From a virus (taxonomy: Duplodnaviria > Caudoviricetes): a stretch of 64,000 nt of DNA. Of this stretch, positions 1 to 28,129 are shown in pieces (positions within the stretch are counted from its first letter, which is position 1; each line of letters begins with the position of its first letter). The position numbers and the translations under genes were made by a program. The stretch covers positions 144,369-208,368 of the IMG/VR virus record IMGVR_UViG_3300012979_000027; one strand, given 5' to 3'. The notes under the pieces are model-generated. The model saw only the letters and a list, made by a program, of their open reading frames with translations, was not told the DNA's origin and ran no database searches.

Positions 1-1174
1 TAATGCGTTTACTTTCAGCTATTTTAAGCTGCAGTTCATTAAAGATTTTGTGATATTCACTATCTTTATTGATTATCTCTTTGGCTTTAACAATATCGCC
101 TTCGATTTCTTCTGTCTTTTCAGCAACTGTCGTAATTTTTTGAAGAATTTCTTCCAACTTTTCGTTCAAAGACAATTTTTCTTCGTTGATATGCGTAATA
201 TGTTCATCAGAATAAGCCCTCTTACAAGTAGGACAAACACCACTAACAGTTTCAAGTCGCTTTAAATCTCTACGAAGAACACCTTCTTCGATATAAAGTT
301 GAGATTTTACTATGTTTAGCTTAGTTTTAAACTCTTCCTGTTTGATAAGAGACGAATTGATAGCATTTAAGTCATAATCTTTAGGCCACTTTTTATGCAA
401 CTCATCAATAGCTGTATTATAAGAAACGATACATCGATTTTCATTATCAACTTTTTCATTGATTGCGTCTAACTCTCTTTGTTTACGAGTTTCATATTGA
501 TTTTGTAAATCTATTAATCGCTCGAGCTCTCTTTGATAGTTCGCGATATTTGATTCATGTAAACTTTGAGTATTTTTCTCAAGAGAATAGTTACCTTTAG
601 TTGTGCGTATATCCTCCTTCAAAATTCGGGACATTAAGGAGAAGATATTTAAGTTGAAAATAGTCTCGATGAAGTTCTTCTTTTCTTGTTTTTTACGAGC
701 CATGAACGGAATAGTATTATTAGCTCGCATCAGAACACAATTTTGGAAAATATCCTTTTCCGCATAAAAAACTTCTTCAATATATTTGTTAGTCTCAGCG
801 GTTGTGGATTTAGTAACCTCTACGCCATCTTTCCAAATCTTTAATGATTGAGGTGCAAGTTTACGTTCAATAAGATAAGTATCAATATTTCCTGGAGTCT
901 CAATATCTGCCTCGAGACGAACTACACAATTTTTACCAACCTTTCGGTTAACAATGAAACTTAACTTAGAAAGTTCTCGCATTGTATTACCGAACAAAGC
1001 AAAATAGAAAGCATCTGAAATGGAACTTTTGCCCGCCGCATTTGCAATACCATCCTCATCTCTATTAACACCTGTAATTACATTCATTCCGGTGTTAAAA
1101 TCTATTTCTAATGGTTCATTACCAATAGATAAGAAGTTTTGAATATAAAGTTTTTTGAAATTAATTTTCTTCAT
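1..1174 (-). CDS. T4 gp46-like recombination endonuclease subunit (SbcC/Rad50-like ATPase); 3' end runs off the window
   Basis: Manual translation from ATG at 1174: MKKINFKKLYIQNFLSIGNEPLEIDFNTGMNVITGVNRDEDGIANAAGKSSISDAFYFALFG (Walker A, N-x-x-GKS), then coiled coil. Absent from the ORF track because it has no stop in the window. Confidence 0.9.
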   Translation of the reverse strand, partial: MKKINFKKLYIQNFLSIGNEPLEIDFNTGMNVITGVNRDEDGIANAAGKSSISDAFYFALFGNTMRELSKLSFIVNRKVGKNCVVRLEADIETPGNIDTYLIERKLAPQSLKIWKDGVEVTKSTTAETNKYIEEVFYAEKDIFQNCVLMRANNTIPFMARKKQEKKNFIETIFNLNIFSLMSRILKEDIRTTKGNYSLEKNTQSLHESNIANYQRELERLIDLQNQYETRKQRELDAINEKVDNENRCIVSYNTAIDELHKKWPKDYDLNAINSSLIKQEEFKTKLNIVKSQLYIEEGVLRRDLKRLETVSGVCPTCKRAYSDEHITHINEEKLSLNEKLEEILQKITTVAEKTEEIEGDIVKAKEIINKDSEYHKIFNELQLKIAESKRI

Positions 1175-1204: not shown

Positions 1205-1231
1205 AAAAATGCCGGTTCTAACCGGCATTTT
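1205..1231 (-). terminator. Hairpin terminator after nadE
   Basis: aaaaatgccggtt-ct-aaccggcattttt inverted repeat with A/T tails. Confidence 0.65.
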
Positions 1232-2117
1232 TCACAAAGTTGGGAAGATATGAGAAATCAGGTTGAGGCATCTGCACAATTTCCAACTTGAACTTATTCT
1301 GCTTATACTTCTTTCTAATCTTTTCTTTTACTTCATCATCTCCCTTGTTGAAACGAATAAAGTCATCAATCTGTTTATAAGTAATACCAAGTCGTTCTTC
1401 ATCAGATTGAGGCTGAAGGCCATCAGCAGGAGTTTTGTCAATTAGTTCAATCAGTCGTTTATGACCATCTACGGGGTAAGTTTGCCAAGACATATCAGCC
1501 ATTCTTTCCTTGACAGAAGTATCTTCTAACATTTTTTTATTATAAAGTAAAGTAGCAACATAGCAACCTAAGTGCTTTACCTCTGTTACTGTTAATCCTT
1601 GAATAGGAGCATACGACCCTGCATTATCGCCAAATTGTGTGGCATAACCAACCATATCTTCTGAAAGATTGGAAGTATTGATAACACGACCACCAATACA
1701 TTGACCAACAGCATGAAGTGTAGACATGCGGATACGAGCAGGAAGATTGATTTCCATGTCCTTATTAGGATAAACATTATCCATTGAGCGTCTATCCCAA
1801 ATCTGTTTTGTGATAGCATCCACACTCTCAGCAATGTTGATAATAGAATGAGAAATACCAAGAATTTTTACCACGTCAAAACTATCATGAATATCAGACT
1901 GTGTTCCTTGTGGCATCAATACACCGTGTACTCGTTCCTTACCAAAAATGGAAACAAGTAATGCAGCTACAACTGTACTGTCTTTACCACCACTAATACC
2001 AACAACAAATTTATCAGCGTTCGTAATTGAAGCCCATGTCTTCAAATGTGTTTCAATGGTTGCATATACCAACTCTAAATTAAAATCATATACTTTCTTT
2101 TCGTTCATATTTTCCAT
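1218..2117 (-). CDS. nadE: NH3-dependent NAD+ synthetase
   Basis: VVGISGGKDS PP-loop, NLPARIRM, NLSEDMVGYATQFGD, TPADGL..SDEERLG; no glutaminase domain. Confidence 0.92.
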   Translation of the reverse strand: MENMNEKKVYDFNLELVYATIETHLKTWASITNADKFVVGISGGKDSTVVAALLVSIFGKERVHGVLMPQGTQSDIHDSFDVVKILGISHSIINIAESVDAITKQIWDRRSMDNVYPNKDMEINLPARIRMSTLHAVGQCIGGRVINTSNLSEDMVGYATQFGDNAGSYAPIQGLTVTEVKHLGCYVATLLYNKKMLEDTSVKERMADMSWQTYPVDGHKRLIELIDKTPADGLQPQSDEERLGITYKQIDDFIRFNKGDDEVKEKIRKKYKQNKFKLEIVQMPQPDFSYLPNFVKNAG

Positions 2118-2147
2118 TATCTTATTTTTGCTTAGTTGAGGGTAGTG

Positions 2148-2339
2148 TCATACTCCCCTCTTTTTTCTTCCAAAAAGTCTATCATCTGTAAGTTTTCTGA
2201 AATACGCAGCAGTAGAGTGACATTTGAATGTGCATGTTTCGTTTCTCTTTTCTTCAAGAATATAATGAGTTACAAAAAACTTGATATTTCGCCATCTCAT
2301 TTTTCTTCGCCAAAAGATGTCACGATTTTTCATACTCAC
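2148..2339 (-). CDS. Small basic hypothetical protein
   Basis: 63-aa ORF packed between neighbouring genes on the same strand. Confidence 0.45.
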   Translation of the reverse strand: MSMKNRDIFWRRKMRWRNIKFFVTHYILEEKRNETCTFKCHSTAAYFRKLTDDRLFGRKKRGV

Positions 2340-2731
2340 AGATTTTCATCAATGGTTTCACGACTTGTCTCAAATTCTTTCGTTTCATCTAAATCCTTCC
2401 AAAGATTTACTGTAACAGTTCCATCATCATTATATTTCAATGCTCTTTTAACACGAAAAAGGGTTCGTTCTAACAAACAGGTTTTATCAATAATATCAGA
2501 AATAGTAAAATCTTTATCAAATTCAGTTTCTTTATTGAACTTATAACCATCTTCATGGGTATATGCTTGTGCTAATAATGATGCAATGAATTCAACGCTT
2601 TCTCGCTTATTAACATCAAAATGCTTTTCAACATTATAATTTGTAATGTAATATTTTGCAAATTTAATTACACTAGGTTGTTTTTCTAACCAAGCAATAT
2701 ATTCAAAATACTTCTTTTGTTTTTCTTCCAT
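2336..2731 (-). CDS. Hypothetical protein whose C-terminus resembles the NAMPT-like C-terminus
   Basis: 131 aa, TAGAACT motif 16 nt upstream, ends FETSRETIDENL. Confidence 0.7.
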   Translation of the reverse strand: MEEKQKKYFEYIAWLEKQPSVIKFAKYYITNYNVEKHFDVNKRESVEFIASLLAQAYTHEDGYKFNKETEFDKDFTISDIIDKTCLLERTLFRVKRALKYNDDGTVTVNLWKDLDETKEFETSRETIDENL

Positions 2732-2738
2732 AAGTTAA

Positions 2739-3587
2739 TTATACATTAGTTCTATGTTTTTTATGATGTGACTTTCCACCTTTACCATTTTTTCCAAGTT
2801 TATAACCAATTTTTTTATACTCTTCTATTTCTTCAATTTTTACACAAAGTCTATGATTAGTTTGTTCGTTAAACATCCATTTTTTACCAAAGTTTGGATT
2901 TTTTTCTCCACTTTTAGATTTTCTAATATTTTCACAAACCTCTTTTGGTAATTTCCTTCCAGTCATAAACTTTGCTGATGCTTCACCAATTTTTTTCTTA
3001 CTCTCTTCCGTGTGTTTAAATCCGAGTTTTTTCTGTCTTATTTTTTCTTTAGTTTCTTCTGTATGTTTAGAACCCAAACGACTTTGAATTAAAATTTGTT
3101 TATGTTCTTCTGAAAGTTTATTATTACCATTTTTTATACGAGATTCTAAAATTTTTTGTCTGTGTTCTTTTGTGTGTTTTCTACCAAGATTCGCTTTAAG
3201 TAAAGCCTTTTTTGCATTGTCGCTCATAGGTCTTCCTATCATTGGACTTGGCAACTTTTTATAAGCAATTCTCAATTTTTCAATTGTTCGTGAATTGATA
3301 GTAACACCTTTATGTCTATTAGCGAATAAAAAGCAAGTTTTTACCATCGCTCTATACTGATAACTATCTTCACCAAACTTTTTCTTATAAATTCGTTTCA
3401 ATAGTAAATGTGCTATAAAATGTTCTCGTACTGTAAGATTTACTTTATTTGACTTTTTGTAAATTAGTTTCTTATCAATAGAACGAGGAACGACATGATG
3501 AGTTTCGTAATACTCACAATTACTTTCATCCAATACATTTTCTCTACGATAACTTACGAGGTTATCATATATCTTCTCATAATCCAT
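2739..3587 (-). mobile_element. Free-standing HNH homing endonuclease with NUMOD3-type DNA-binding repeats (MobE/Seg-like)
   Basis: YYETHHVVPRS..N.V.LT.REHFIAHLLL HNH core, repeated G.KHTEE(T/S)K.KI motifs, GEKNPNFGKKW, TATAAATA late box upstream. Confidence 0.88.
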
Positions 3588-3645
3588 ATCAGTATTTATA
3601 CAAAATGTATCTCGTGTGAAAGGATTATGAGAAGATTTTTATTTT

Positions 3646-5442
3646 TTATAGATTTTCGTCTATCGTTCTACGGACTTCTTCAAAATTCTGTTTATATTCT
3701 TTTCCGTCCTTGAAGTAAGGAATGAGAGCAGAATTTTTACCAATCAAGTCCTTTTCATACTTTTCATCCTTATAAATCAATTCACCTTTTTCATCAAAAT
3801 AAATTTGACACAATCCTCTAGTTGATTTCTTGGATGACCAACTTTTAGGGTCCTTATAAACAAATTTCTCTTGAATTTCACCATTTTCGTCATAATACTT
3901 TGAGTGTGAGCACTTTACACAAATGCTGAAAGTGTCTCTCGTAAAGGGTGACAAAGTACCGTCTTCATTCTCAAGGGCTTGGAATGAGAATGAACCTACA
4001 CCAAGACTTACATTGTTGGCAGCAAATCCCTTGATAGCAAGTCGCTTATAGATTTTCTTGGCACGAGTGATAGTAATGCTATCACCATAAACTGCCTTAA
4101 TACCAGGGTTGAGAACCTTGAACCCCTTGGAGTTCACATTTCCACCAAAGAGTTCATACATGGTTTCCACCATGCCCTTCTCTTCCCAAGTACGAGAACG
4201 ATTCTGAAGAACACCTGATGCCCACATTGTAGGACAATCCTTATCAACAGTCTCATCAATGCCATGCAAATGTTCAACTGCACGAATACGAACAAGGTAT
4301 TCCTCACCATCACACAGGACTGCTACAAGATTACCCTCACGGAAACCTTGTTCCCAAAGATTATTTGCTTCCTCTTCTGTAAACATTAGAGTCATACACT
4401 CAAACTTAGTTCCATCTTCAAGCATTTCCTTAGGAATGCGCTTTACTGAATCAGCATGAAGAATAGGTACAGTACCACAGAGAGCATCCACAGGTTCAGC
4501 ACTATCATGTCGGACACCAATGAATACCCCACGCTTACCACGCTCATTAATTTCCTCCATAAAGTTGTTAGGAAGGATGTTGGTAAGTACATTCCAGAAG
4601 TCATAACTGTCACTTACTGCTGCAAATGACACATTCTTATAAAGCTCGAAAAGATACTTGAATGTAGGAATTTCATCACCTTTATCCAAACAAGCATGAG
4701 AAGTCATAACAGAATGCTCTGTTGAAGTAAGACCGCGAACGTTACCTTCACACTTACCATAAACATTCTGAATATGTTTACGAGCAGCAACCGTAGATGA
4801 GTTCCACATTGAAGTAAGCCAAGCAACGGAAGCATTTACTGCACTCTCATTACTCTCCTGACCACGCATTGAGAAGTCACACATGGCAGTTCGTTCATCA
4901 ATGCCATTTTCAACTGTCGCAGAAAATGCGCCTCTTGCAATTTTACGATATTCACGAGCAATGGTAGCACTCACCATCGGATGCCAAATTGCAGCCGAAA
5001 GGCTTGCTTCAAGAGCCTGTCCGACCCAGAAAAACTGAGGATTGGTAGACTTGATTTCCACACAAGGAACACCCATAGGAACAAGCGTACCCTCAGGCAC
5101 AGCATTGATTTCCACAGGAAGATAGCCAAGGTCATGAAGTGTATGAAGATTAATAAGAGTCTTAGTAATCATATGGCCGGAATAACCAAGACCATTCTTA
5201 AGAACATCGGCAATATCAACAGCAATTTCATCCCAAGGACAATTAAAGAAGTTATCATTGAAATTCTTCACAACATAAGAATGCACATAAGCACTCAAAC
5301 CGAAGAATACTACCTTATCAACACCTTTAAGGCGAGAACCACGAGGTGTGAGATATGAAGTCAATTCTCGCAGTTCAGGACGATACTGGAGAATGTGCGT
5401 CAACTTATAAAAGTCTGTCAAAAGCCAAGGATTTAGAAACAT
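3646..5442 (-). CDS. Nicotinamide/nicotinate phosphoribosyltransferase family (NAMPT-like, possibly Namat-like)
   Basis: LLTDFYKLTH, DFSMRG, STEHSVM, VSDSYDFW, RHDS, YGDSIT, GVGSFSFQ, TRDTF, KKSTRG; about 95-aa insertion after PVDALCG. Confidence 0.9.
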   Translation of the reverse strand: MFLNPWLLTDFYKLTHILQYRPELRELTSYLTPRGSRLKGVDKVVFFGLSAYVHSYVVKNFNDNFFNCPWDEIAVDIADVLKNGLGYSGHMITKTLINLHTLHDLGYLPVEINAVPEGTLVPMGVPCVEIKSTNPQFFWVGQALEASLSAAIWHPMVSATIAREYRKIARGAFSATVENGIDERTAMCDFSMRGQESNESAVNASVAWLTSMWNSSTVAARKHIQNVYGKCEGNVRGLTSTEHSVMTSHACLDKGDEIPTFKYLFELYKNVSFAAVSDSYDFWNVLTNILPNNFMEEINERGKRGVFIGVRHDSAEPVDALCGTVPILHADSVKRIPKEMLEDGTKFECMTLMFTEEEANNLWEQGFREGNLVAVLCDGEEYLVRIRAVEHLHGIDETVDKDCPTMWASGVLQNRSRTWEEKGMVETMYELFGGNVNSKGFKVLNPGIKAVYGDSITITRAKKIYKRLAIKGFAANNVSLGVGSFSFQALENEDGTLSPFTRDTFSICVKCSHSKYYDENGEIQEKFVYKDPKSWSSKKSTRGLCQIYFDEKGELIYKDEKYEKDLIGKNSALIPYFKDGKEYKQNFEEVRRTIDENL

Positions 5443-5500
5443 AATTTTAGTAATTTTAACTTATAATTTAATTTTATGCAAGTTCTGTCAGGGCCTTAGT

Positions 5501-6337
5501 TTAACGTCCTGACAAATCAATTTCAATTACTTTCTTTTCGCTGAATATCTTTAGAGTATCTGCAGTATGAATTTCATCAATAATTCCATTTGCATTAGAA
5601 TTATAAAAATCCTTAGATTGCGGCATCATGTGAGTGATGTAAAGGTCCACTTTCTTTGCTCCCATTTTACGAAGCGCAGTGGCTGCTTCTCTAAAGGTTC
5701 GTCCACCAGCACAAATATCATCGATAATCAGAATTCGTTTATCCTTAATATCTTCCTTTTCAGCAATGACTTCATACGAAACAATTTCACCCGTCTTAAG
5801 GTCACGCTTCTTGTCGCCAAAACGATAAGGAGACTTGAAGAGTTCACTATACTTCTTCGCTGCTCCTGCATCAGGATAGAACATAAGATCATAAGGATTT
5901 TCCTCATTGAGATGAACTTCTGCTTCCAAGAAAGACTTAACAGGATAATTCACATGACAATGCTTTAGCAAAGCAGGAAGTACATTACTGTGTGGGTCAC
6001 ATATGTAAACTGCTCTGAAATTCAAATCATTGATAATCTCTGCCACATACTTCAAACTAAACAAATGAACACCTGTGTCTCTATCCATCTGCCCATAAGG
6101 GAAGAAATCAATAACAAGTCTTGCCCAATTGTTAGGATAAGCATCATCCCACCACTTCTTAATAACCTGAAGATTGAACAAGTCCTCATTGCTTTCATAA
6201 ACAACTTTGAACTCATCCCAACAAGGTTCTTCAAAAGGAACAGGACAGGTTGCCTTTAGCCTATTAGCAGAAACATAGTCAACTTCATTGTTAGGGAAGC
6301 GACTCTGTACTACATTTATTCCATTAAACGTTACCAT
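5501..6337 (-). CDS. Ribose-phosphate pyrophosphokinase-like protein (Prs/Adps-like)
   Basis: FPNNE, FPYGQMDR, DPHS, YPDAGAAKKY, KKRD..TGEI, IIDDICAGGRTF, LYITH. Confidence 0.9.
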   Translation of the reverse strand: MVTFNGINVVQSRFPNNEVDYVSANRLKATCPVPFEEPCWDEFKVVYESNEDLFNLQVIKKWWDDAYPNNWARLVIDFFPYGQMDRDTGVHLFSLKYVAEIINDLNFRAVYICDPHSNVLPALLKHCHVNYPVKSFLEAEVHLNEENPYDLMFYPDAGAAKKYSELFKSPYRFGDKKRDLKTGEIVSYEVIAEKEDIKDKRILIIDDICAGGRTFREAATALRKMGAKKVDLYITHMMPQSKDFYNSNANGIIDEIHTADTLKIFSEKKVIEIDLSGR

Positions 6338-6342
6338 GATTT

Positions 6343-7140
6343 TTACTTTTCTTTTTTCTCAAAAAATTTACAAACATCATTATCAGATACAGTTTTATAA
6401 CCTTTATGTCTTCCGCTATATCTATTAGCAGGATACCAAACCATATTTTCCTTTTTAAGGCATTCACCAACTATCAATGAACCATGAGTAGGAGTTTCAG
6501 AAAAATACTTACAAAGAAAACAGTTTCTGCCCAAAGAGCTTTCCATCGGAATAGTTAAGTTATAATTCTTTTCAATATAATTCATCAACAACTGTGCATA
6601 ATGTTCTGCGCTATCTACTTCCGAAGGAATACTACCATAATCTGCAAGTTCACCTTGAATTAAAACATCTGCTTTACGATGAAAATCTTTGTGTATTGCT
6701 ACAAAAACGTCATTTTTACGTAGCTTATCAAAATCATCTATTTCAATTTTTTTTCCCAGTGCTCTACCCATTTCATAAAAACAGATAGGTTGTGGCGAAG
6801 GAGAATTGGAAAAATACATAGAGAAAAGAACACGAGGAGTATTCAAATATTTGAATTCCCATTCAATTTGCTCTCTAGTAGCATTAGGATTAGTTACATC
6901 AAAAGAATCTCTACGAGGGTTAAGAAAAATAATACCTCGTTCGTGTTTCCAATTTTTCTTAAAATAGTTAATGACAACTTTTTGCCATTCCTCACAATTA
7001 GTGATGCCACCTGCTAAAAATACAGGAATAGCAAACACTAAATTATAAGACGCAAGTTCAACATCTTCAGGGCAAGTAACGACTGTTACTTTATTTGCAA
7101 AAAGCTCCTTTGCTTTTTTTGCGTAAGAATTATAGAACAT
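6343..7140 (-). CDS. Nucleoside 2-deoxyribosyltransferase-like protein with C-terminal Cys-rich domain
   Basis: VFLAGGITNCEEWQ..LNPRR..EQIEWEF..PICFYEMG. Start reassigned to the ATG at 7140 (MFYNSY), which overlaps the pncA stop. Confidence 0.75.
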   Translation of the reverse strand: MFYNSYAKKAKELFANKVTVVTCPEDVELASYNLVFAIPVFLAGGITNCEEWQKVVINYFKKNWKHERGIIFLNPRRDSFDVTNPNATREQIEWEFKYLNTPRVLFSMYFSNSPSPQPICFYEMGRALGKKIEIDDFDKLRKNDVFVAIHKDFHRKADVLIQGELADYGSIPSEVDSAEHYAQLLMNYIEKNYNLTIPMESSLGRNCFLCKYFSETPTHGSLIVGECLKKENMVWYPANRYSGRHKGYKTVSDNDVCKFFEKKEK

Positions 7141-7777
7141 AACTTTCAGATTTCTCAATATCAATCTGACAGCAACCCATTGTAGTGAGGGCCGCCTTAT
7201 GTGTATCTTCAGTAACACATGCACACAAATCCTCAAGAACAGTAATCTTCATATCAGGGAACAAACCACGAATATAGAGAGCATTAGATGCTACGCAAAT
7301 ACCCGTGCAAAAACCCATAAGTACAATCTCGTCAATCTCATGAGACATATCCATTTTGATATCCTTCATGAAATTACCAATGTGTCTGCCAAGGTAATAC
7401 GACATAAAGGTATGCTTATCATAAATTCTATGAGGAGTAACGTGCTTCATCACCTCTTCATCAATCTCCCATCCCCATGTGTCCTTTATACAATGCTCAA
7501 CGGGGAGCTTCTTACCCTCAAGAGTGTTTTCATACCAGCAAGCTTCTGAAATTTCACTACTCCACTTCTTACCGTCCTTTTCAAACTCATCACCAACACT
7601 TTCCTTGTTGAAGTGCGTGTCACGGGTAGCCCAAATACCAACAGTATCTTCCTTGTCCTTTACCATAGAAAGGAACTTGGCAATGTTAGGAGTTACACGC
7701 TTAGCCCAATCAGAACCAAGACTTCCACTAATGAAGTCGTTCTGAACATCAATTACAATATAAAGCTTTTTTGTCAT
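7130..7777 (-). CDS. pncA: Nicotinamidase (isochorismatase family)
   Basis: VIDVQNDF, TRDTH, PVEHCIKDTWGWEI, K.TF, GFCTGICV (Asp/Lys/Cys triad and metal-binding His). Confidence 0.85.
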   Translation of the reverse strand: MTKKLYIVIDVQNDFISGSLGSDWAKRVTPNIAKFLSMVKDKEDTVGIWATRDTHFNKESVGDEFEKDGKKWSSEISEACWYENTLEGKKLPVEHCIKDTWGWEIDEEVMKHVTPHRIYDKHTFMSYYLGRHIGNFMKDIKMDMSHEIDEIVLMGFCTGICVASNALYIRGLFPDMKITVLEDLCACVTEDTHKAALTTMGCCQIDIEKSESYVL

Positions 7778-7819: not shown

Positions 7820-8188
7820 ATGTCAAAAAGAAAGCTTTCAGACAGAGAATTTTTAATCGAACAATGTCTTCAAGATGCATATTATAATCGCAATGAAGAT
7901 CGTCTTGATGAAGGATGGTGGGAAGATATCAAAGCTAGTGCCAATGGAGCAAAGGAGTGGTTGAAAGCAGATTTAAAGGATTCGTTTACTCTAAAAAGTA
8001 AACAAAAAATAAAAAAAGATAGAACTAAAGCCAAGATGCGTGGTAAAGCTCAATCATATGCAATCTCTGCTGCAAAAATGTTATTATCATTTGTAAATGC
8101 TGGCGGTAAAATTGGAAATAATATTAAAAATATACATGATGTTATTATTCGTCTAAAGCGCTTTGGTTATGGAAGTTCTGAAAAATAA
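7820..8188 (+). CDS. Late protein, putative internal head protein
   Basis: TAAATA 7 nt upstream; LIE/LDE motifs; paralogous to the next ORF. Confidence 0.6.
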   Translation: MSKRKLSDREFLIEQCLQDAYYNRNEDRLDEGWWEDIKASANGAKEWLKADLKDSFTLKSKQKIKKDRTKAKMRGKAQSYAISAAKMLLSFVNAGGKIGNNIKNIHDVIIRLKRFGYGSSEK

Positions 8189-8204
8189 ATATAAATAAAA
8201 CTAT

Positions 8205-8813
8205 ATGGCTAAAAAACATATTTCAGAAAGAGAGCTTTTAATTTCTCAAATAAATGAAGACCTTCAATATGCTAAAGGAGAAAAAATTGATGAAAGTTGG
8301 TTTGATGATTTGAAGGCCAATGTTTCAGGAGGAATTAACGGCTTGAAACAAGGCGTAAAAAATACCGGACGTCGTATCGCCAATGTTGGTAGAACCGTAA
8401 AACAAGTTGGAAGCAATATTAGTCAAGGCGCAAGGGCTGCAGGTAATCTTGCGATAGGCAATAAAGAAGCAGCATTACAAAATGTTAATAATGTTAAAAA
8501 TGCAACTGCTAATAATAAGTCCATCGATAATACTGCAAAAAATGCAGCTAGTTCAGCTAAGGTTGCTTCATATTCCAAATCTATTCTTAATACAGTTGGA
8601 GCTTATATTAAAGCAGGTGGTGATGTACAAGAACTTATCAGCGCCATACAAGAATTAGCTCCTAATAATCAAAATCAACAAAGCCCTTCTCCTGAAGAAG
8701 AAATGGGGTCTCAAATGACTGATAATGCAATTCAAAATGGCGCAGTGATGGATTCTTATAATCCTTATAAAAATAGTAGTAGACAGCTAAAAATGCTTAA
8801 TTCTATACAATAA
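8205..8813 (+). CDS. Late protein, putative internal head protein (paralog of 7820..8188)
   Basis: TATAAATA upstream; shares SERE.LI..IDESWFDDLKA..G and AK..SY...AGG motifs with 7820..8188. Confidence 0.6.
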   Translation: MAKKHISERELLISQINEDLQYAKGEKIDESWFDDLKANVSGGINGLKQGVKNTGRRIANVGRTVKQVGSNISQGARAAGNLAIGNKEAALQNVNNVKNATANNKSIDNTAKNAASSAKVASYSKSILNTVGAYIKAGGDVQELISAIQELAPNNQNQQSPSPEEEMGSQMTDNAIQNGAVMDSYNPYKNSSRQLKMLNSIQ

Positions 8814-8815
8814 AG

Positions 8816-8848
8816 AAAAAAGTCCGAGATTTAAACTCGGGCTTTTTC
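8816..8848. terminator. Bidirectional hairpin terminator between convergent genes
   Basis: aaaaagtccgag-atttaaa-ctcgggcttttt. Confidence 0.65.
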
Positions 8849-9874
8849 ATATAAAGATAAAACATAAGAAGACACTTCATTTTTATTTGGAATATCTAGT
8901 AATTCGATATACTTTTTAATCGCATCTTCCATATCAAAAGCTTTTAATTCAACTTCAGCTATATCTTGGCTGAAGTTTTTTCCATTTTCCCATTCTACAG
9001 AAAACTCCAGAGGTTTCAAACCACTAATAATATTGCTAAGGATATTCATATCTGACGGAGTAATATCCATATCAATAATAACTTTAAAAATATTCCCAGG
9101 TATTACATTATGAGTCAAATTTTCTATAGGCCATCTCTTATTTTCTATAAGTTCGCTAAGGTTTAACTTATAGAATCTCGGAGAAACTTCATTTTTTACA
9201 AACTCACTTGTTAACGTATTTAAATCAAGAATATCAAATCCCTTTTCTGTTACATAAGTGTCAGAATGGTCCATTGGGAATGTATTACCTACATAAACAA
9301 TACGTTTATTAGGCCATGTCTTTTCTTGACGAAGATGAAAATGACCTGAATACACCAAATCAAATTTTTCTAGGAGTCCCGATGCTTTATAACCTTCTTC
9401 GCAATTCCCGACAGCAAGATTATATTTGAACATATTAATCTCAGCATGTGTAAAGAGAACATCTGCATTAGAATATTCTTCGGGATTATAGCCCCAACCG
9501 CAAAAAAGGATTTGTTTAGAACCGAAAGTCACTAATTCAGGCTTAGCAAAAACCTTAATATTGTCCCTGCCCTGAAATAGATTAACCGGCGAAACCGAAG
9601 GGGAATTTGCGTAATAAAGGTCATGATTACCTAAGATGAAATATAAATTAAACTCACTAAGCTTATTCAAAACCACTGAAGCTATATGAAGGGTATTTGC
9701 TGAGATGGAATTTCGAGTATGAAAGAAATCACCAAGAAATACTACATCTTTAATATCCCTCTTTCTTAATTCAGATACAAACCAGTCGGCCCAATTGAGC
9801 GCAATATTATGCCACTCAACTGAGTCCTGCTTAATACCCAAATGCAAATCTGAAAAAATAGCGATTTTATTCAT
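8831..9874 (-). CDS. T4 gp47-like recombination nuclease (SbcD/Mre11 family)
   Basis: FSDLHLG, LGDFFH, GNHD, SGHFH metallophosphoesterase motifs; likely start MNKIAIF. Confidence 0.9.
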   Translation of the reverse strand: MNKIAIFSDLHLGIKQDSVEWHNIALNWADWFVSELRKRDIKDVVFLGDFFHTRNSISANTLHIASVVLNKLSEFNLYFILGNHDLYYANSPSVSPVNLFQGRDNIKVFAKPELVTFGSKQILFCGWGYNPEEYSNADVLFTHAEINMFKYNLAVGNCEEGYKASGLLEKFDLVYSGHFHLRQEKTWPNKRIVYVGNTFPMDHSDTYVTEKGFDILDLNTLTSEFVKNEVSPRFYKLNLSELIENKRWPIENLTHNVIPGNIFKVIIDMDITPSDMNILSNIISGLKPLEFSVEWENGKNFSQDIAEVELKAFDMEDAIKKYIELLDIPNKNEVSSYVLSLYEKARV

Positions 9875-10082
9875 CGTCTCCACAGAATATTACTGCTAAA
9901 AATCCAAGAAGACAAACTCCCATCAAGGATGTAAAACCAATCCACCCCCAAAGATATGTAACAGCAAGCAAAAGCGTTGAAAAAATTGTAGAAAGGCCAG
10001 CAAAAACGCAACCGACTAAAATTCCTACAATCATTCTATCATTTTCTGAAAGACCTTTCTTTCTCAAAATGTCAATTATCAT
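9867..10082 (-). CDS. Small membrane protein with two TM segments
   Basis: Two hydrophobic stretches; overlaps both neighbours in operon fashion. Confidence 0.6.
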   Translation of the reverse strand: MIIDILRKKGLSENDRMIVGILVGCVFAGLSTIFSTLLLAVTYLWGWIGFTSLMGVCLLGFLAVIFCGDDE

Positions 10083-10645
10083 AATCTTCTATAACTATTT
10101 CATTTTCTGCATTATAAAACTCTCCCAAAGACGAAGAAAATACAGGTTTAATATAAATGGGAGCGTCTGTATTCTCTTTAGCAAACCCTCTCAAGAATTC
10201 CTGACCATATTCTGCTCGTACTTTAACATTTTGTTTTTCAAGATTAATTCTTCTCAAAAATTCACGCCAAGCAATACGATTAAAATAGCTAAAAGGATTA
10301 TATTTTCGCGATGGGTCAAACTTCTTACCAATTAATGCTTTTGTACACTTAACAAGAGCATCTGCAACCATCTCATCCTTCCAGGTATAACCCGAAAATT
10401 TAGGATTTTTTGCTAAACCGGTTAATCATCATACTAATCGCCAAACCACACTTCTCAAAATACTTTTTAGCATTTCTTCTAATAAGTTTAGCTTCAGGGC
10501 TCTTATCATTATCATCAAGTTCTGATTTCAATTTATCGTATTTGTAATACTCAGAAATATCAGACATGAATTGTGGTCCTGAAATATAGTGTTCGGGCTT
10601 TTCCTTTATCGGTTTAGAAGATACATATTCCGTACTTAATGCCAT
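10072..10645 (-). CDS. T4 gp55-like late-transcription sigma factor, interrupted by a +1 frameshift at CGG (10420-10418)
   Basis: Joining ORFs 10400..10663 and 10072..10371 by skipping one C gives HYISGPQF...MMIN-G-LAKNPKFSGYTWKDEMVADA...FDP..NPFSYFNRIAWREFLRRINLEK, the typical gp55 signature. Confidence 0.88.
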
Positions 10646-10670
10646 GAACTTATTATACCGCAAAAAATAA

Positions 10671-10697
10671 AAAAGGTGGGTAAAAACCCACCTTTTG
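10671..10697 (-). terminator. Hairpin terminator after the vWA gene
   Basis: aaaaggtgggt-aaaa-acccacctttt. Confidence 0.7.
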
Positions 10698-10702
10698 AAG
10701 GA

Positions 10703-12295
10703 TTACTTAATGATAGAATAACGGTCCTTGTTAAGTACTGAAACCATAAAATCCTCGGGATTCTTAGCAGAGAGAATCTGCTCAACCATGCCTGGCTTAC
10801 ACCCACCACAAAGGATAGCACCGCTACGATGATATGTAATTGGTTTAGAACTTACAACTGTAGCAGTATTCCAGAATACAATCTTCGGCATCTTATAACC
10901 TGCCTCAGCATACTTCGTACGAATCATCTTCAATGCGTCAGCCCCTCTTGTTGCTTGGTCAAACTGCATATCAGAGATAATCAAGATAGCCTCAGGCATC
11001 TCATCTACAGAAATCTTATTCTTTACTGCAATCTCAAGAACCTTATCAAATACAGCTTCCAAATCAGTATTCTGACCCCAAGGAGCAGAAATCATATGAA
11101 GAAGCTTCTCCTTCAACGGCCAAGTATCATCAATTGTCTGGAAAGTCGGCTTACGCGAGAAAGAGATAAACTGATTCTTAAAGATACCAGTATTATGCTC
11201 TGCAATATAAAGACCAAGAGACAAAGCAACGTCGATAGAAGCAATATTATGACCCCAACCATTGAACATAGAGCCAGAAGTATCTACTACTGCAAGCCAA
11301 TTATGATTACCGGTTGCGCCTTCAAAATAATTACGAAGAGAACGCCACTGAGAATCAGCCTGAAGAGCGATATTTTCATCTCCACGATATTCATGAGTAT
11401 CTACATAACAACCATTCTTCTGCGTCTGCTTAATACAACGCATTTTATTAGTGATTGGACGAGTTACATCATAAGGATAAAGAGTAGAGGTATTAATCTT
11501 TGGTGCGCTCTTAAGCATTACGGGCTCTGCAGAACGTACAACCTTATTAAGTTCCTGAAGATATGTAACATATCGAGCATTATCATTTCGAAGGAATGCT
11601 TTACGATACTTACCGGCTGCATAAGAAGGAAGCTTAGAATAATCAAAGGTATAATCCTTATTAGAAAGCTTAGTCTCTACAATATTAATAACCTTACGGA
11701 GAAAACTGAGTTGCTGACGATACTGCTTCTCGGAAGCAATACCAAGACCATTACGAACCGTTACAGAAAGCTCACGGGTCTTCTTGGAAGAAGTATTGCA
11801 AGAAGGAAGCCACTTAGCAAGAAGAGATACCTTCTGCGGCTCACCATTCATCACATTAAGCATATCATTGCTAAGCTGAGTACGAAGTACGTCGAAAATC
11901 TGAATATCAATCTCCTTAGAAACACCCAAAAGCGCCACAAGGTCATCCCAACGGCCAAAAGGCTTATCATCGGTACCATTAGGAATATGAATAATATTAC
12001 GAGCATACTCCGGATAGAGGCTCAAAAGAGTTCGCATACCATGACGAAATACCTCTCGCTCACCCTGACCTTCATGAATATCACGAATATAGAAAAGACA
12101 CTTAAGAGTAAGCTCCTTATTCTCAAGGGCGGCCTTACGAACGGCTTCCTCTACTGCCTTAGGGTTACGACGATATGAAAAACCATCCTGAAAAAGGTCC
12201 AAAACTGCAGAAAGAGAGCTATTAAAAGCAGTCATTCCGTTAGTAGTGGTAGTTACATTATCAATCTTAGTTGCACCATCAAATAGACTAGACAT
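10703..12295 (-). CDS. DUF2828/TROVE-like protein with C-terminal vWA domain
   Basis: TTNG...LDLF, FYIRDI..GQGER, GRWDDL, LLAKWLPS, LYPYD, VVDTSGSM (MIDAS), NTDLEAVF, ISDMQFD, IVFWN. Confidence 0.85.
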   Translation of the reverse strand: MSSLFDGATKIDNVTTTTNGMTAFNSSLSAVLDLFQDGFSYRRNPKAVEEAVRKAALENKELTLKCLFYIRDIHEGQGEREVFRHGMRTLLSLYPEYARNIIHIPNGTDDKPFGRWDDLVALLGVSKEIDIQIFDVLRTQLSNDMLNVMNGEPQKVSLLAKWLPSCNTSSKKTRELSVTVRNGLGIASEKQYRQQLSFLRKVINIVETKLSNKDYTFDYSKLPSYAAGKYRKAFLRNDNARYVTYLQELNKVVRSAEPVMLKSAPKINTSTLYPYDVTRPITNKMRCIKQTQKNGCYVDTHEYRGDENIALQADSQWRSLRNYFEGATGNHNWLAVVDTSGSMFNGWGHNIASIDVALSLGLYIAEHNTGIFKNQFISFSRKPTFQTIDDTWPLKEKLLHMISAPWGQNTDLEAVFDKVLEIAVKNKISVDEMPEAILIISDMQFDQATRGADALKMIRTKYAEAGYKMPKIVFWNTATVVSSKPITYHRSGAILCGGCKPGMVEQILSAKNPEDFMVSVLNKDRYSIIK

Positions 12296-12327
12296 AATTT
12301 TATTTTTTGCTGTTTATGTTTTGAAAA

Positions 12328-12663
12328 TTACAAATTATTTTTAAAGAAGTTCTGTTTCTTATTAAGTGTAAAATATTTCTCAACAAGTTCGTCAAACTCC
12401 TTTTCAGATATATGGCTTGACCAACGTTTTATAATATTTCCTTTCAAAATATCGTAAAAGTTTCTAACATCTGACTCGTCTTTTAACCAACAATTTGTTA
12501 TAAGATTTTGTTCTGGGTCATTATGCGCTATAAAATGTTCAAAAATAGAGAGGCCTTTTTCATTTTGCTTAACTGTACAATAAATTGTGAAATAACCAAA
12601 GTCATCTCTGAACTCAATATCCCTACAGATGAATTCGCAAAGGCTCTCTAACTCTTTAATCAT
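12328..12663 (-). CDS. Hypothetical protein
   Basis: 111-aa ORF in a tightly packed minus-strand array. Confidence 0.6.
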   Translation of the reverse strand: MIKELESLCEFICRDIEFRDDFGYFTIYCTVKQNEKGLSIFEHFIAHNDPEQNLITNCWLKDESDVRNFYDILKGNIIKRWSSHISEKEFDELVEKYFTLNKKQNFFKNNL

Positions 12664-12976
12664 TATTTTCTTTATGAATAATATTAATGCTCTTCACTTC
12701 GGAACCAGAAACAGTTACATCATAAGAATAAGTACTTTCATTCCATTTTGTTTTTATAGAATGTAGCTTCTTTTCTTTCTGATGACAGCATACGATACAA
12801 GTAAAAATACCAATTACAAACACATAAAATCCAAAACTCCATTGAATACAACCCATATCCCAATCATCTTGAAAGTATTTGAATGGGTTTAATGTCATAT
12901 TAACAAGACAACTCGTTATAAGTGTTAAAATAGCAGCAACTGCTATAACTCCCAAAATAATTAAAAAAATTTCCAT
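12656..12976 (-). CDS. Membrane protein with two TM segments
   Basis: Hydrophobic segments; C-terminus resembles that of 12961..13260. Confidence 0.6.
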   Translation of the reverse strand: MEIFLIILGVIAVAAILTLITSCLVNMTLNPFKYFQDDWDMGCIQWSFGFYVFVIGIFTCIVCCHQKEKKLHSIKTKWNESTYSYDVTVSGSEVKSINIIHKENND

Positions 12977-13260
12977 TCTTTCTTAGTTGTTACATGATTT
13001 ATTTGAACTTTATTAATTTTATTTTCACTATCATGAACATTAACTGTCAAAATACCGTTATTTTCATCTAAATTATAGTCTATGACATCATTTTCCACAT
13101 AATCATAGGCCAAAAATAGAGAACCAATAACAACAAGAATAATAGGAATAAAATTAACAGCCGACGCATCCGATTCCAATGCTATAATAGGATATATAAT
13201 AAACCCACCTATACCAAAAATTATCGTTAGAATACAAAAAAATGCAAGTAAAAAGCTCAT
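12961..13260 (-). CDS. Membrane protein with two TM segments
   Basis: Hydrophobic segments; overlaps neighbours. Confidence 0.6.
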   Translation of the reverse strand: MSFLLAFFCILTIIFGIGGFIIYPIIALESDASAVNFIPIILVVIGSLFLAYDYVENDVIDYNLDENNGILTVNVHDSENKINKVQINHVTTKKEWKFF

Positions 13261-13556
13261 AACTTCATCAATACTTTAGATTCTTCTATAAATTCACATC
13301 TATCTTTATCCATATCTGCAGTAAAGAACTCAACATCAGTGTGTCTGTTAAGAATTTTACCGAAAATATCACAAAAACTCCTATTTGAATCCTTTAAATG
13401 TGTATGTTGCCAAAGATATTCAGCTACACACTCAGCAACTATATTTCTAAGGCTACAATCAAACTCATCAATTTGCTCTGCTAATTCATAACCCTGCTCA
13501 GTGAACTGATCTTTATCATTGAGGTTATTTCTTTCAAGAATGATTTCGTGCTTCAT
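13257..13556 (-). CDS. Hypothetical protein
   Basis: 99-aa ORF in array. Confidence 0.6.
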   Translation of the reverse strand: MKHEIILERNNLNDKDQFTEQGYELAEQIDEFDCSLRNIVAECVAEYLWQHTHLKDSNRSFCDIFGKILNRHTDVEFFTADMDKDRCEFIEESKVLMKL

Positions 13557-27517: not shown

Positions 27518-28129
27518 ATGAAGAACTTTTATTTTAGTAATCTTAACTTCCTTTTGGAAGATATGAATCAGGAGCATAAAATTGCTATTATTCCCGGTTC
27601 ATTCAAACCACCACACAAGGGTCACTATGAGATGATTAAACATTATTCAGAACTCGTAGGTCCAGATGGAGAAGTATTAGTATTTGTTTCTAAACCCTCC
27701 ACCAAGAATCAACGTAAGACTCCAGATGGTAAAATCATTTCTCCAGAACTTGTAAAACAAATTTTAGACATATATTGTCAATCTTTAAGTAATGTTAAAG
27801 TAGAAATTGCTCAAGTATCTCCTGTTAAAGCATGCTACGATATTGGCGAACGTTTAGAATCGGGGGTTTTGCTTTTCGGATGTTCTAAAAAGGATGATGA
27901 TATTAAACGTTTCGAACAAATCAAATCTTATATTGAATCGCGAAATCCTAACCTGATTGTTTTAGACCCAATGACTACCGCAGTTGATGTTACTGCTTCA
28001 GAAGATGGAGTTGTATCAGCAGCTGATTTTCGACGAGTTTATGGAAATCCTGAAGAAATGATGCAATTTCTTCCTGACCATCTAAATGATGGAACAAAAC
28101 ATAAAGTGATTCAAATATTACTTCAATAA
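27518..28129 (+). CDS. HxGH-motif cytidylyl/nucleotidyltransferase-like protein
   Basis: IAIIPGSFKPPHKGH and VSAADFR (ISST-like) motifs. Confidence 0.8.
   Translation: MKNFYFSNLNFLLEDMNQEHKIAIIPGSFKPPHKGHYEMIKHYSELVGPDGEVLVFVSKPSTKNQRKTPDGKIISPELVKQILDIYCQSLSNVKVEIAQVSPVKACYDIGERLESGVLLFGCSKKDDDIKRFEQIKSYIESRNPNLIVLDPMTTAVDVTASEDGVVSAADFRRVYGNPEEMMQFLPDHLNDGTKHKVIQILLQ

Follow-up and report, generated by a model that had tools for sequence, protein, structure and literature searches.

A candidate nicotinate-type variant of the phage NAD+ reconstitution pathway NARP1

Depletion of nicotinamide adenine dinucleotide (NAD+) serves as a central bacterial strategy against phages (Thoeris, DSR, SIR2-HerA, aRES and others), and three phage pathways of NAD+ restoration have been described. 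The window analysed here, from a large gut phage, is the final 64 kb of the 208,368-bp viral record IMGVR_UViG_3300012979_000027 (99 % complete, GC about 33 %). At 1218–7777 it contains a tightly packed minus-strand cluster encoding a nicotinamidase (pncA), an NDT-like protein, an Adps/Prs-like kinase, a Namat/NAMPT-like transferase, a homing endonuclease, two small open reading frames (ORFs) and an NAD synthetase (nadE). The question raised by this locus is whether these genes rebuild NAD+ by a known route with auxiliary genes alongside or by a distinct one. All genes named in a preliminary description of the locus were found to be present and co-oriented on the minus strand. None of them is an adenylyltransferase gene, and the sole PF01467-type gene of the 208-kb genome is located outside the cluster at 27518–28129.

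NARP1 consists of the kinase Adps and the transferase Namat and is known from phages SPbetaL1, Bas63 and ICP1 (bioRxiv 10.1101/2024.02.11.579819; PMC12774641; PMC13586617). By sequence, the cluster is probably a nicotinate-type (deamidated) version of NARP1 with a four-enzyme core. The module itself is real, conserved and widespread. Its enzyme families, intact catalytic residues, changed substrate pocket, linkage to pncA and nadE, and descent from Namat can all be read from sequence. The family assignments of the window genes were made from Pfam, PHROG and NCBIfam profile matches, and the features of the core are as follows.

7130–7777, minus strand: pncA, nicotinamidase, 215 amino acids (PF00857 Isochorismatase, 4e-20)
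5501–6337, minus strand: Adps-like PRPS-fold kinase, 278 amino acids (phrog_619, 8e-61)
3646–5442, minus strand: Namat-like transferase, 598 amino acids (phrog_448, 1e-130)
4795–4797, minus strand: codon of transferase Ser216, at the position of Namat Asp215 and human NAMPT Asp219 (amide hydrogen bond)
4183–4470, minus strand: insertion of about 95 residues in the transferase (residues 325–420), relative to solved Namat
3934–3996, minus strand: adenine 'selectivity clamp' helix of the transferase, 21 residues versus 11
1218–2117, minus strand: nadE, single-domain ammonia-type NAD synthetase, 299 amino acids (PF02540, 2.9e-43; TIGR00552, 1.8e-41)

A Namat-type transferase with a changed pyridine pocket

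The kinase and transferase genes are on the same strand, 58 nt apart. In HMMER comparisons with solved structures, the transferase matched phage Namat at 1.2e-80 (9w5x/9w5w) and 1.9e-68 (9ke8) and human NAMPT at 1e-36. In bits, it scored 275 with SPbetaL1 Namat and 129 with human NAMPT, and on this sequence evidence it belongs with Namat, not NAMPT. The catalytic core of Namat (Asp13', Tyr15', Phe189, Arg192, the catalytic His, Arg306 and Asp308) was kept in the window protein as D10, Y12, F190, R193, H243, R311 and D313, and E242, also part of the catalytic core, was likewise conserved. The alignment to Namat covered residues 6–324 and 421–560, the approximately 95 residues in between being an insertion. 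The transferase is the sole PF04095 protein of the genome, and TIGR01513 gave it 21.7 bits against a cut-off of 297. Neither a PncB-type nicotinate phosphoribosyltransferase nor NadD was found in the window genome, whose only PF01467 gene encodes a protein resembling phosphopantetheine adenylyltransferase (PPAT).

Nicotinamide is hydrogen-bonded by Asp215 in SPbetaL1 Namat (PMC12774641), and the equivalent Asp219 of human NAMPT determines its substrate specificity (PMC7096376). Ser216 of the window protein was aligned with Namat Asp215 in the HMMER alignment to 9w5x, and the translation at this point reads WNSSTV. Among 150 representatives at 50 % identity, drawn from 1.8 billion proteins, the residue at the amide-binding position was Asp in 95, Ala in 33 and Ser in 19. 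The clade lacking Asp carries Ala or Ser, plus one Val. Further positions separated the two groups, namely 188 (H to S/G/C), 214 (G to K/N), 240 (A to S) and 312 (P to G/H) in addition to 216 (D to A/S). These positions line the pyridine site, and the catalytic and phosphoribose residues were invariant in both groups.

The same Asp-to-Ser change at the same position is known from human NAMPT D219S (Khan et al. 2006, as cited in PMC4919578 and PMC7096376), which is tabulated as 'switch the substrate affinity', with D219A as activity loss (PMC4919578, Table 2). D219S is a laboratory point mutant of an enzyme that uses phosphoribosyl pyrophosphate (PRPP), whereas the phage change is natural, clade-wide and accompanied by other pocket changes.

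Ten loci were found to carry Glu at the amide-binding position (L096, L097, L117, L133, L139, L144, L146, L149, L151 and L157). These keep His188 and Ala240 and have the ordinary NARP1 context, with Adps present and pncA and nadE absent. The insertion at 4183–4470 falls where length varies across the transferase clade. Several Namat homologs of 780–885 amino acids (P0268, P0248, P0246 and P0256) have long intein-like insertions at active-site motifs, either inside the GS..TRD clamp or just after the RPD motif.

Linkage to pncA and nadE and descent from Namat

The relationship between pocket type and gene context was determined at 158 viral loci with 10-kb flanks, scored by profiles made from the window's own proteins. 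Loci with a residue other than Asp or Glu at the amide-binding position are termed non-Asp below. Such a survey of pncA and nadE alongside Adps and Namat had been suggested in the preliminary description, and it returned a strict link to the non-Asp transferases. Of these 54 loci, all contained nadE, 51 contained pncA and 51 contained Adps, and the three without pncA are truncated on the upstream side. For the 104 Asp/Glu loci, nadE and pncA were both absent throughout and Adps was present in 100. Dereplication at 70 % identity left 16/16 versus 0/20 (Fisher p = 1.4e-10, a test that overstates independence here because the linkage has one evolutionary origin). Searches of five Asp-type genomes, of which four reach 90 % completeness or more, found no NAD synthase anywhere.

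The usual gene order was pncA-adps-namat-nadE. This order recurs in relatives whose transferases are only 31–76 % identical to that of the window, and the arrangement is therefore not due to chance. Two loci (L055 and L066) were compact four-gene operons with overlapping reading frames. A Macro-domain gene was present in 40 of the 54 non-Asp loci, located between the transferase gene and nadE where its position was checked.

By sequence, PncA and NadE look active. The best solved match of the pncA product was yeast Pnc1 (2h0r, 4.7e-13). The catalytic Asp, Lys and Cys and the zinc-binding Asp, His and His of Pnc1 were all aligned and kept, and the same six residues were present in 50/50 module-linked homologs. 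For NadE, the solved matches were 2e18 (8e-25) and 3fiu (4e-24). Its loop reads SGGKDS, the SGGxDS loop being present in 53/53 module-linked homologs, and its 299 residues contain PF02540 only, with no glutaminase domain.

The non-Asp transferases formed one bipartition with a support of 0.98. When the tree was rooted on KVP40-like NadV, this clade was placed many nodes deep inside Asp-type Namat, with the Felixounavirus and ICP1 Namat branching outside it. His188, Asp216 and Ala240 are common to the NAMPT outgroups, which makes the non-Asp state a derived one. A phylogeny of the NAMPT-like protein against characterized enzymes had been proposed as a check on the deamidated reading, and in it the non-Asp clade arises inside Adps-partnered Namat. 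Most module-linked Adps (44 of 49) formed one clade of the Adps tree (support 0.95), with the small group containing the window protein branching nearby. The Adps and transferase trees are roughly congruent.

The clamp-helix signature of Namat spans 11 residues, GS-X-phi-X-phi-X-phi-TRD, with an aromatic residue at each of positions 3 and 7 (PMC12774641). The window helix instead consists of GSFSFQA, a 10-residue insert and FTRD, so that the 11-residue signature is absent and position 7 is displaced, while the aromatic at position 3 (F485) and TRD are conserved. The clamp Arg is also present, with R37 aligned to SPbetaL1 Namat Arg40 (clamp-loop stacking) and Arg found in 45 of 52 non-Asp representatives. 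A clamp insert was present in 38 of 49 non-Asp representatives, giving motifs of 17–25 residues, and the other 11, which are early-branching, keep the canonical 11 residues. The pocket switch therefore preceded the clamp insert. The clamp signature is complete in early-branching members such as phAss-1 and L134, alongside pncA, adps and nadE. L134 has all four module genes plus a Macro-domain gene, and the public gut phage phAss-1 encodes pncA, a PRPS-fold gene, a transferase with Ala216 and Ser240, and nadE.

The genome of phAss-1 (L086, OQ749652.1) is published and TAG-recoded, with the full module at 2399–6837. Gene by gene, its record annotates a nicotinamidase, a ribose-phosphate pyrophosphokinase and a nicotinamide phosphoribosyltransferase, along with two hypothetical proteins, of which one is NadE; in the phAss-1 paper, the nicotinamidase appears only as a table entry.

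Other NAD-related genes were observed within some of the operons. In L011 (8176–9066) and L012 (8377–9165), SIR2-family genes (PF02146, 2e-48) are located between adps and the transferase gene, placing a phage gene for an NAD+-consuming enzyme within an NAD+-rebuilding operon. A NADAR-domain gene (5e-31) occupies the same interval in L003 (7547–8011), a relative with 48 % identity.

The proposed route and its alternatives

The Adps-like protein matched phrog_619 at 8e-61, against 2.5e-11 for the best cellular PRPS structure, and was 37–41 % identical to Felixounavirus Adps-type proteins. A sequence search of the Protein Data Bank with it returned cellular PRPS only, with no Adps chain matched. 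The structure, activity and key residues of ICP1 Adps have been published (PMC13586617), and its GenBank record was used as the comparison sequence. Of these residues, F18, H121, D161, K185, D212, D213 and C215 were kept in the window protein and R87 was replaced by Gln; these residues alone do not split Adps from PRPS.

In the proposed route, PncA would deamidate the nicotinamide released by NAD+ cleavage to nicotinate, and the Adps homolog would pyrophosphorylate ADP-ribose (ADPR) with ATP to ADPR pyrophosphate (ADPR-PP). The Namat-derived transferase, in which the amide-binding Asp is Ser (Ala in most relatives), would then join nicotinate and ADPR-PP directly to nicotinic acid adenine dinucleotide (NaAD). 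Finally, the ammonia-type NadE would amidate NaAD to NAD+ with the expenditure of ATP. Such a route would need neither a nicotinic acid mononucleotide (NaMN) intermediate nor an adenylyltransferase. We infer the substrates of the second and third steps, as we do an anti-defence role and a selective advantage.

Every sequence-level prediction of the deamidated idea that was examined held, comprising loss of the Asp, linkage, descent, retention of Adps and Macro, and no phage adenylyltransferase in 9/10 other genomes. Direct formation of NaAD by the transferase is, on these data, somewhat likely. More broadly, we favour with modest confidence a reading in which Ser/Ala-type Namat would catalyse nicotinate + ADPR-PP to NaAD + pyrophosphate, a reaction not known in biochemistry. 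These enzymes would then belong to a distinct pathway, widespread among gut phages, that bypasses NaMN and NadD and probably evolved once from NARP1 by the pocket switch and the capture of pncA and nadE.

The choice of ADPR-PP over PRPP is the least secure step of the proposed pathway, and several observations weigh against the nicotinate-type reading here and elsewhere. The window Adps has Gln at the ADPR-contacting Arg87, and a residue test to tell Adps from PRPS was rejected, the conserved residues being common to both. The solved Namat still converts PRPP and nicotinamide to nicotinamide mononucleotide (NMN) in vitro (PMC12774641). The clamp insert puts the second adenine-stacking aromatic out of register, so that use of ADPR-PP could be altered in the window's subclade. 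One non-Asp locus, L057, has no adjacent Adps. NadE is about equally similar to archaeal 2e18 and Francisella 3fiu, its preference for NaAD or NaMN not being readable from sequence, and the Francisella enzyme works as an NMN synthetase in that organism. Most relatives carry Ala at the amide-binding position; human NAMPT mutated to Ala there does not act on nicotinamide, which fits a lost use of nicotinamide and is no proof of nicotinate use.

Several of these points would be expected from a PRPP-based Preiss–Handler salvage, in which the Prs-like enzyme makes PRPP, the transferase makes NaMN, host NadD converts this to NaAD and the phage NadE finishes. In addition to the in vitro activity of solved Namat on PRPP, the absence of any examined residue that splits Adps from PRPS and the interrupted clamp helix of the window's subclade, this alternative is favoured by L057, which has a more PRPS-like gene elsewhere in its genome. 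We nevertheless regard it as unlikely. The clade descends from Adps-partnered Namat and has kept the partner in 51/54 loci, its early branches have a complete adenine clamp, and Macro-domain genes of the kind that feeds ADPR into NARP1 are located inside the module. Host NadD would also be needed in 9/10 genomes, and a PRPP synthetase is already present in the host. A Francisella-type route, with NadE amidating NaMN to NMN and the HxGH protein at 27518 adenylylating NMN, would agree with the similarity of NadE to 3fiu (4e-24), as close as that to classical NadE, and with the intact nucleotidyltransferase motifs and weak NadD/NMNAT-family matches of the HxGH protein. It is very improbable given that the top 50 fold matches of that protein are PPAT only, that its gene is 20 kb away on the opposite strand, and that PF01467 genes are absent from 9/10 other module genomes, 8 of which are at least 90 % complete.

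The remaining alternatives concern the pyridine. The transferase has the catalytic core and most of the phosphoribose contacts of Namat, as would be the case if the locus encoded ordinary NARP1 (nicotinamide + ADPR-PP to NAD+) beside independent pncA and nadE auxiliary genes. This is improbable, since the amide-binding Asp is missing from all of the pncA/nadE-linked enzymes and from no others, human NAMPT D219A is tabulated as inactive, a nicotinamidase would consume the substrate of the transferase, and the four genes overlap as a single operon in L055 and L066. Alternatively, the remodelled pocket might accept another pyridine or base, yielding an NAD analogue or other ADP-ribosyl compound. 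Several pocket positions have changed together and not the Asp alone, as this would predict, but both partners tied strictly to the transferase point to nicotinate specifically, PncA producing it and NadE amidating a dinucleotide of it, and this reading is very improbable.

With regard to L057, its transferase (9950–13397) is Ala-type without the clamp insert and has nadE and pncA directly downstream. The genome is 56 % complete, and its more PRPS-like gene of 319 amino acids (L085, 1339–2298) is located approximately 15 kb or more away.

The nicotinate-type reading can be set against the known systems. The module shares with NARP1 an adjacent PRPS-fold kinase and NAMPT-fold transferase of the same two families, the transferase clade being nested in Namat, together with the catalytic core, the clamp Arg, the first clamp aromatic, TRD and a presumed input of ADPR. 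It differs in the replacement of Asp215 by Ser or Ala within a remodelled pyridine pocket, in an obligatory nicotinamidase upstream and NAD synthetase downstream, in a presumed transferase product of NaAD as opposed to NAD+, and, in the window's subclade, in the 10-residue clamp-helix insert. Known extensions of NARP1 are RyDEP and the Macro-domain phosphatase Adpp of NARP1-AP, which feeds ADPR into the pathway (bioRxiv 10.64898/2026.01.28.702374). NARP1-AP (Adps, Adpp and Namat) is likewise an extended NARP1 operon, and many relatives of the module hold a Macro-domain gene. However, a search of the window genome revealed no Macro, Nudix or NADAR gene, and the extension in NARP1-AP is on the ADPR side, whereas that of the module is on the pyridine side.

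NARP2 (a NadV-type NAMPT plus NMNAT/Nudix, KVP40-like) also provides phage-encoded NAD+ restoration but uses PRPP and an adenylyltransferase. NadV has GGGLLQ..RD, His188, Asp216 and Ala240, whereas the window protein has GSF..TRD; in addition, the window genome is without a Nudix gene and its one nucleotidyltransferase is PPAT-like. NARP3 (PnuC and NadR, PMC13464706) restores phage NAD+ as well, but imports nicotinamide riboside. The bacterial Preiss–Handler pathway (PncA, PncB, NadD and NadE) resembles the module in deamidating nicotinamide first and ending with the amidation of NaAD by NadE. The difference is that the module is without a PncB-type enzyme and NadD, both of which the Namat-derived enzyme and Adps would replace, skipping NaMN.

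The NARP1 preprint text (bioRxiv 10.1101/2024.02.11.579819) contains no nicotinamidase, NadE, PncA, NaAD or nicotinic acid, and the Namat structure paper (PMC12774641) does not mention nicotinate or NaAD. Full-text literature searches found no paper on a nicotinate-type NARP1 variant or on the reaction of nicotinate and ADPR-PP to NaAD. If correct, the nicotinate-type route would bring both a new enzyme activity and, with NaAD, a new intermediate into the arms race between phages and bacteria. It could also account for the way phages manage where, owing to the host or the conditions, nicotinamide is rapidly deamidated, and its last step would be irreversible through the expenditure of ATP. The natural Asp-to-Ser/Ala switch would be a clean and testable example of a pathway rewired by one pocket change and two recruited genes. 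Thousands of gut-phage 'nicotinamide phosphoribosyltransferase' annotations are then probably wrong on the substrate twice over.

Accessory and neighbouring genes

The remaining genes of the cluster, its flanks and the HxGH gene are as follows.

6343–7140, minus strand: NDT-like accessory, 265 amino acids (PF15891, 1.4e-11)
2739–3587, minus strand: homing endonuclease, NUMOD3/HNH-type (PF07460, 8.5e-14; phrog_655, 1.1e-29; phrog_12434 HNH, 1.7e-5)
2336–2731, minus strand: ORF of 131 amino acids, no Pfam, PHROG or NCBIfam match
2148–2339, minus strand: ORF of 63 amino acids, no Pfam, PHROG or NCBIfam match
8831–9883, minus strand: SbcD-like nuclease subunit in the flank, outside the module (phrog_100, 7e-66)
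2–1174, minus strand: SbcC-like nuclease subunit in the flank, ending at the window edge, outside the module (phrog_77, 7e-55)
27518–28129, plus strand: HxGH nucleotidyltransferase, 203 amino acids (PF01467, 5.7e-6)

Outside the core, the cluster has gained genes in a lineage-specific manner, namely the NDT-like gene, the homing endonuclease and both small ORFs. The cluster had been put forward as one of five enzymes, a count that is reduced to four for the conserved core, as the NDT-like gene is only occasional and commoner at ordinary NARP1 loci. It was found in 2/54 non-Asp loci versus 17/94 Asp-type loci, and on these counts the NDT-like protein was rejected as a fifth core enzyme and is considered an occasional NARP1-associated accessory. 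Its true start is residue 33 of a longer ORF (6343–7236), and in the protein an N-glycosidase-type Rossmannoid domain is accompanied by a C-terminal part rich in Cys. The AlphaFold2 model had a predicted local distance difference test score (pLDDT) of 79, and the best Foldseek match was 4mcj (4e-8), an uncharacterized NDT-like structure from Parabacteroides, followed by weak matches to TIR and RCL/DNPH1. E95, E123, R77 and R126 are among its invariant residues. The protein may represent a NARP1 accessory, as yet undescribed, that uses N-glycosidase chemistry.

The homing endonuclease was located between the transferase gene and nadE in only 4/84 loci, and the 63-aa ORF had no relative in the other loci. 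The last 28 or so residues of the 131-aa ORF resemble the C-terminus of the transferase (BLASTP, 13/28 identities, E 0.01), and both proteins end in TIDENL. A reading of this ORF as a duplicated NAMPT C-terminus was rejected, the likeness being confined to a 28-residue tail at E 0.01 with no DNA repeat. The shared TIDENL tail after the homing endonuclease may be a footprint of its insertion.

The HxGH protein at 27518 had been offered as a possible NaMN adenylyltransferase of the pathway, a role that does not agree with its PPAT-like fold or with its failure to co-occur with the module. Its AlphaFold2 model (pLDDT 85) gave top 50 Foldseek matches that were all PPATs, and with PF01467 absent from 9/10 other module genomes it was rejected as the missing adenylyltransferase partner. 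ESM Atlas look-ups of both the HxGH and the NDT-like protein yielded nothing beyond the Pfam family of each. The HxGH protein belongs to a conserved viral family of about 200 amino acids with the motifs GSFKPPHKGH and SASDFR and a PPAT-like fold.

A Megablast search of the cluster against phage records gave no match, and a promoter and terminator scan of the locus found sites no more numerous than in shuffled sequence. Genes for the SbcD-like and SbcC-like nuclease subunits flank the NAD module and two plus-strand ORFs (7820–8813). Upstream of the NAD module in the relative L002 there is likewise a homologous phosphoesterase gene (3902–4951).

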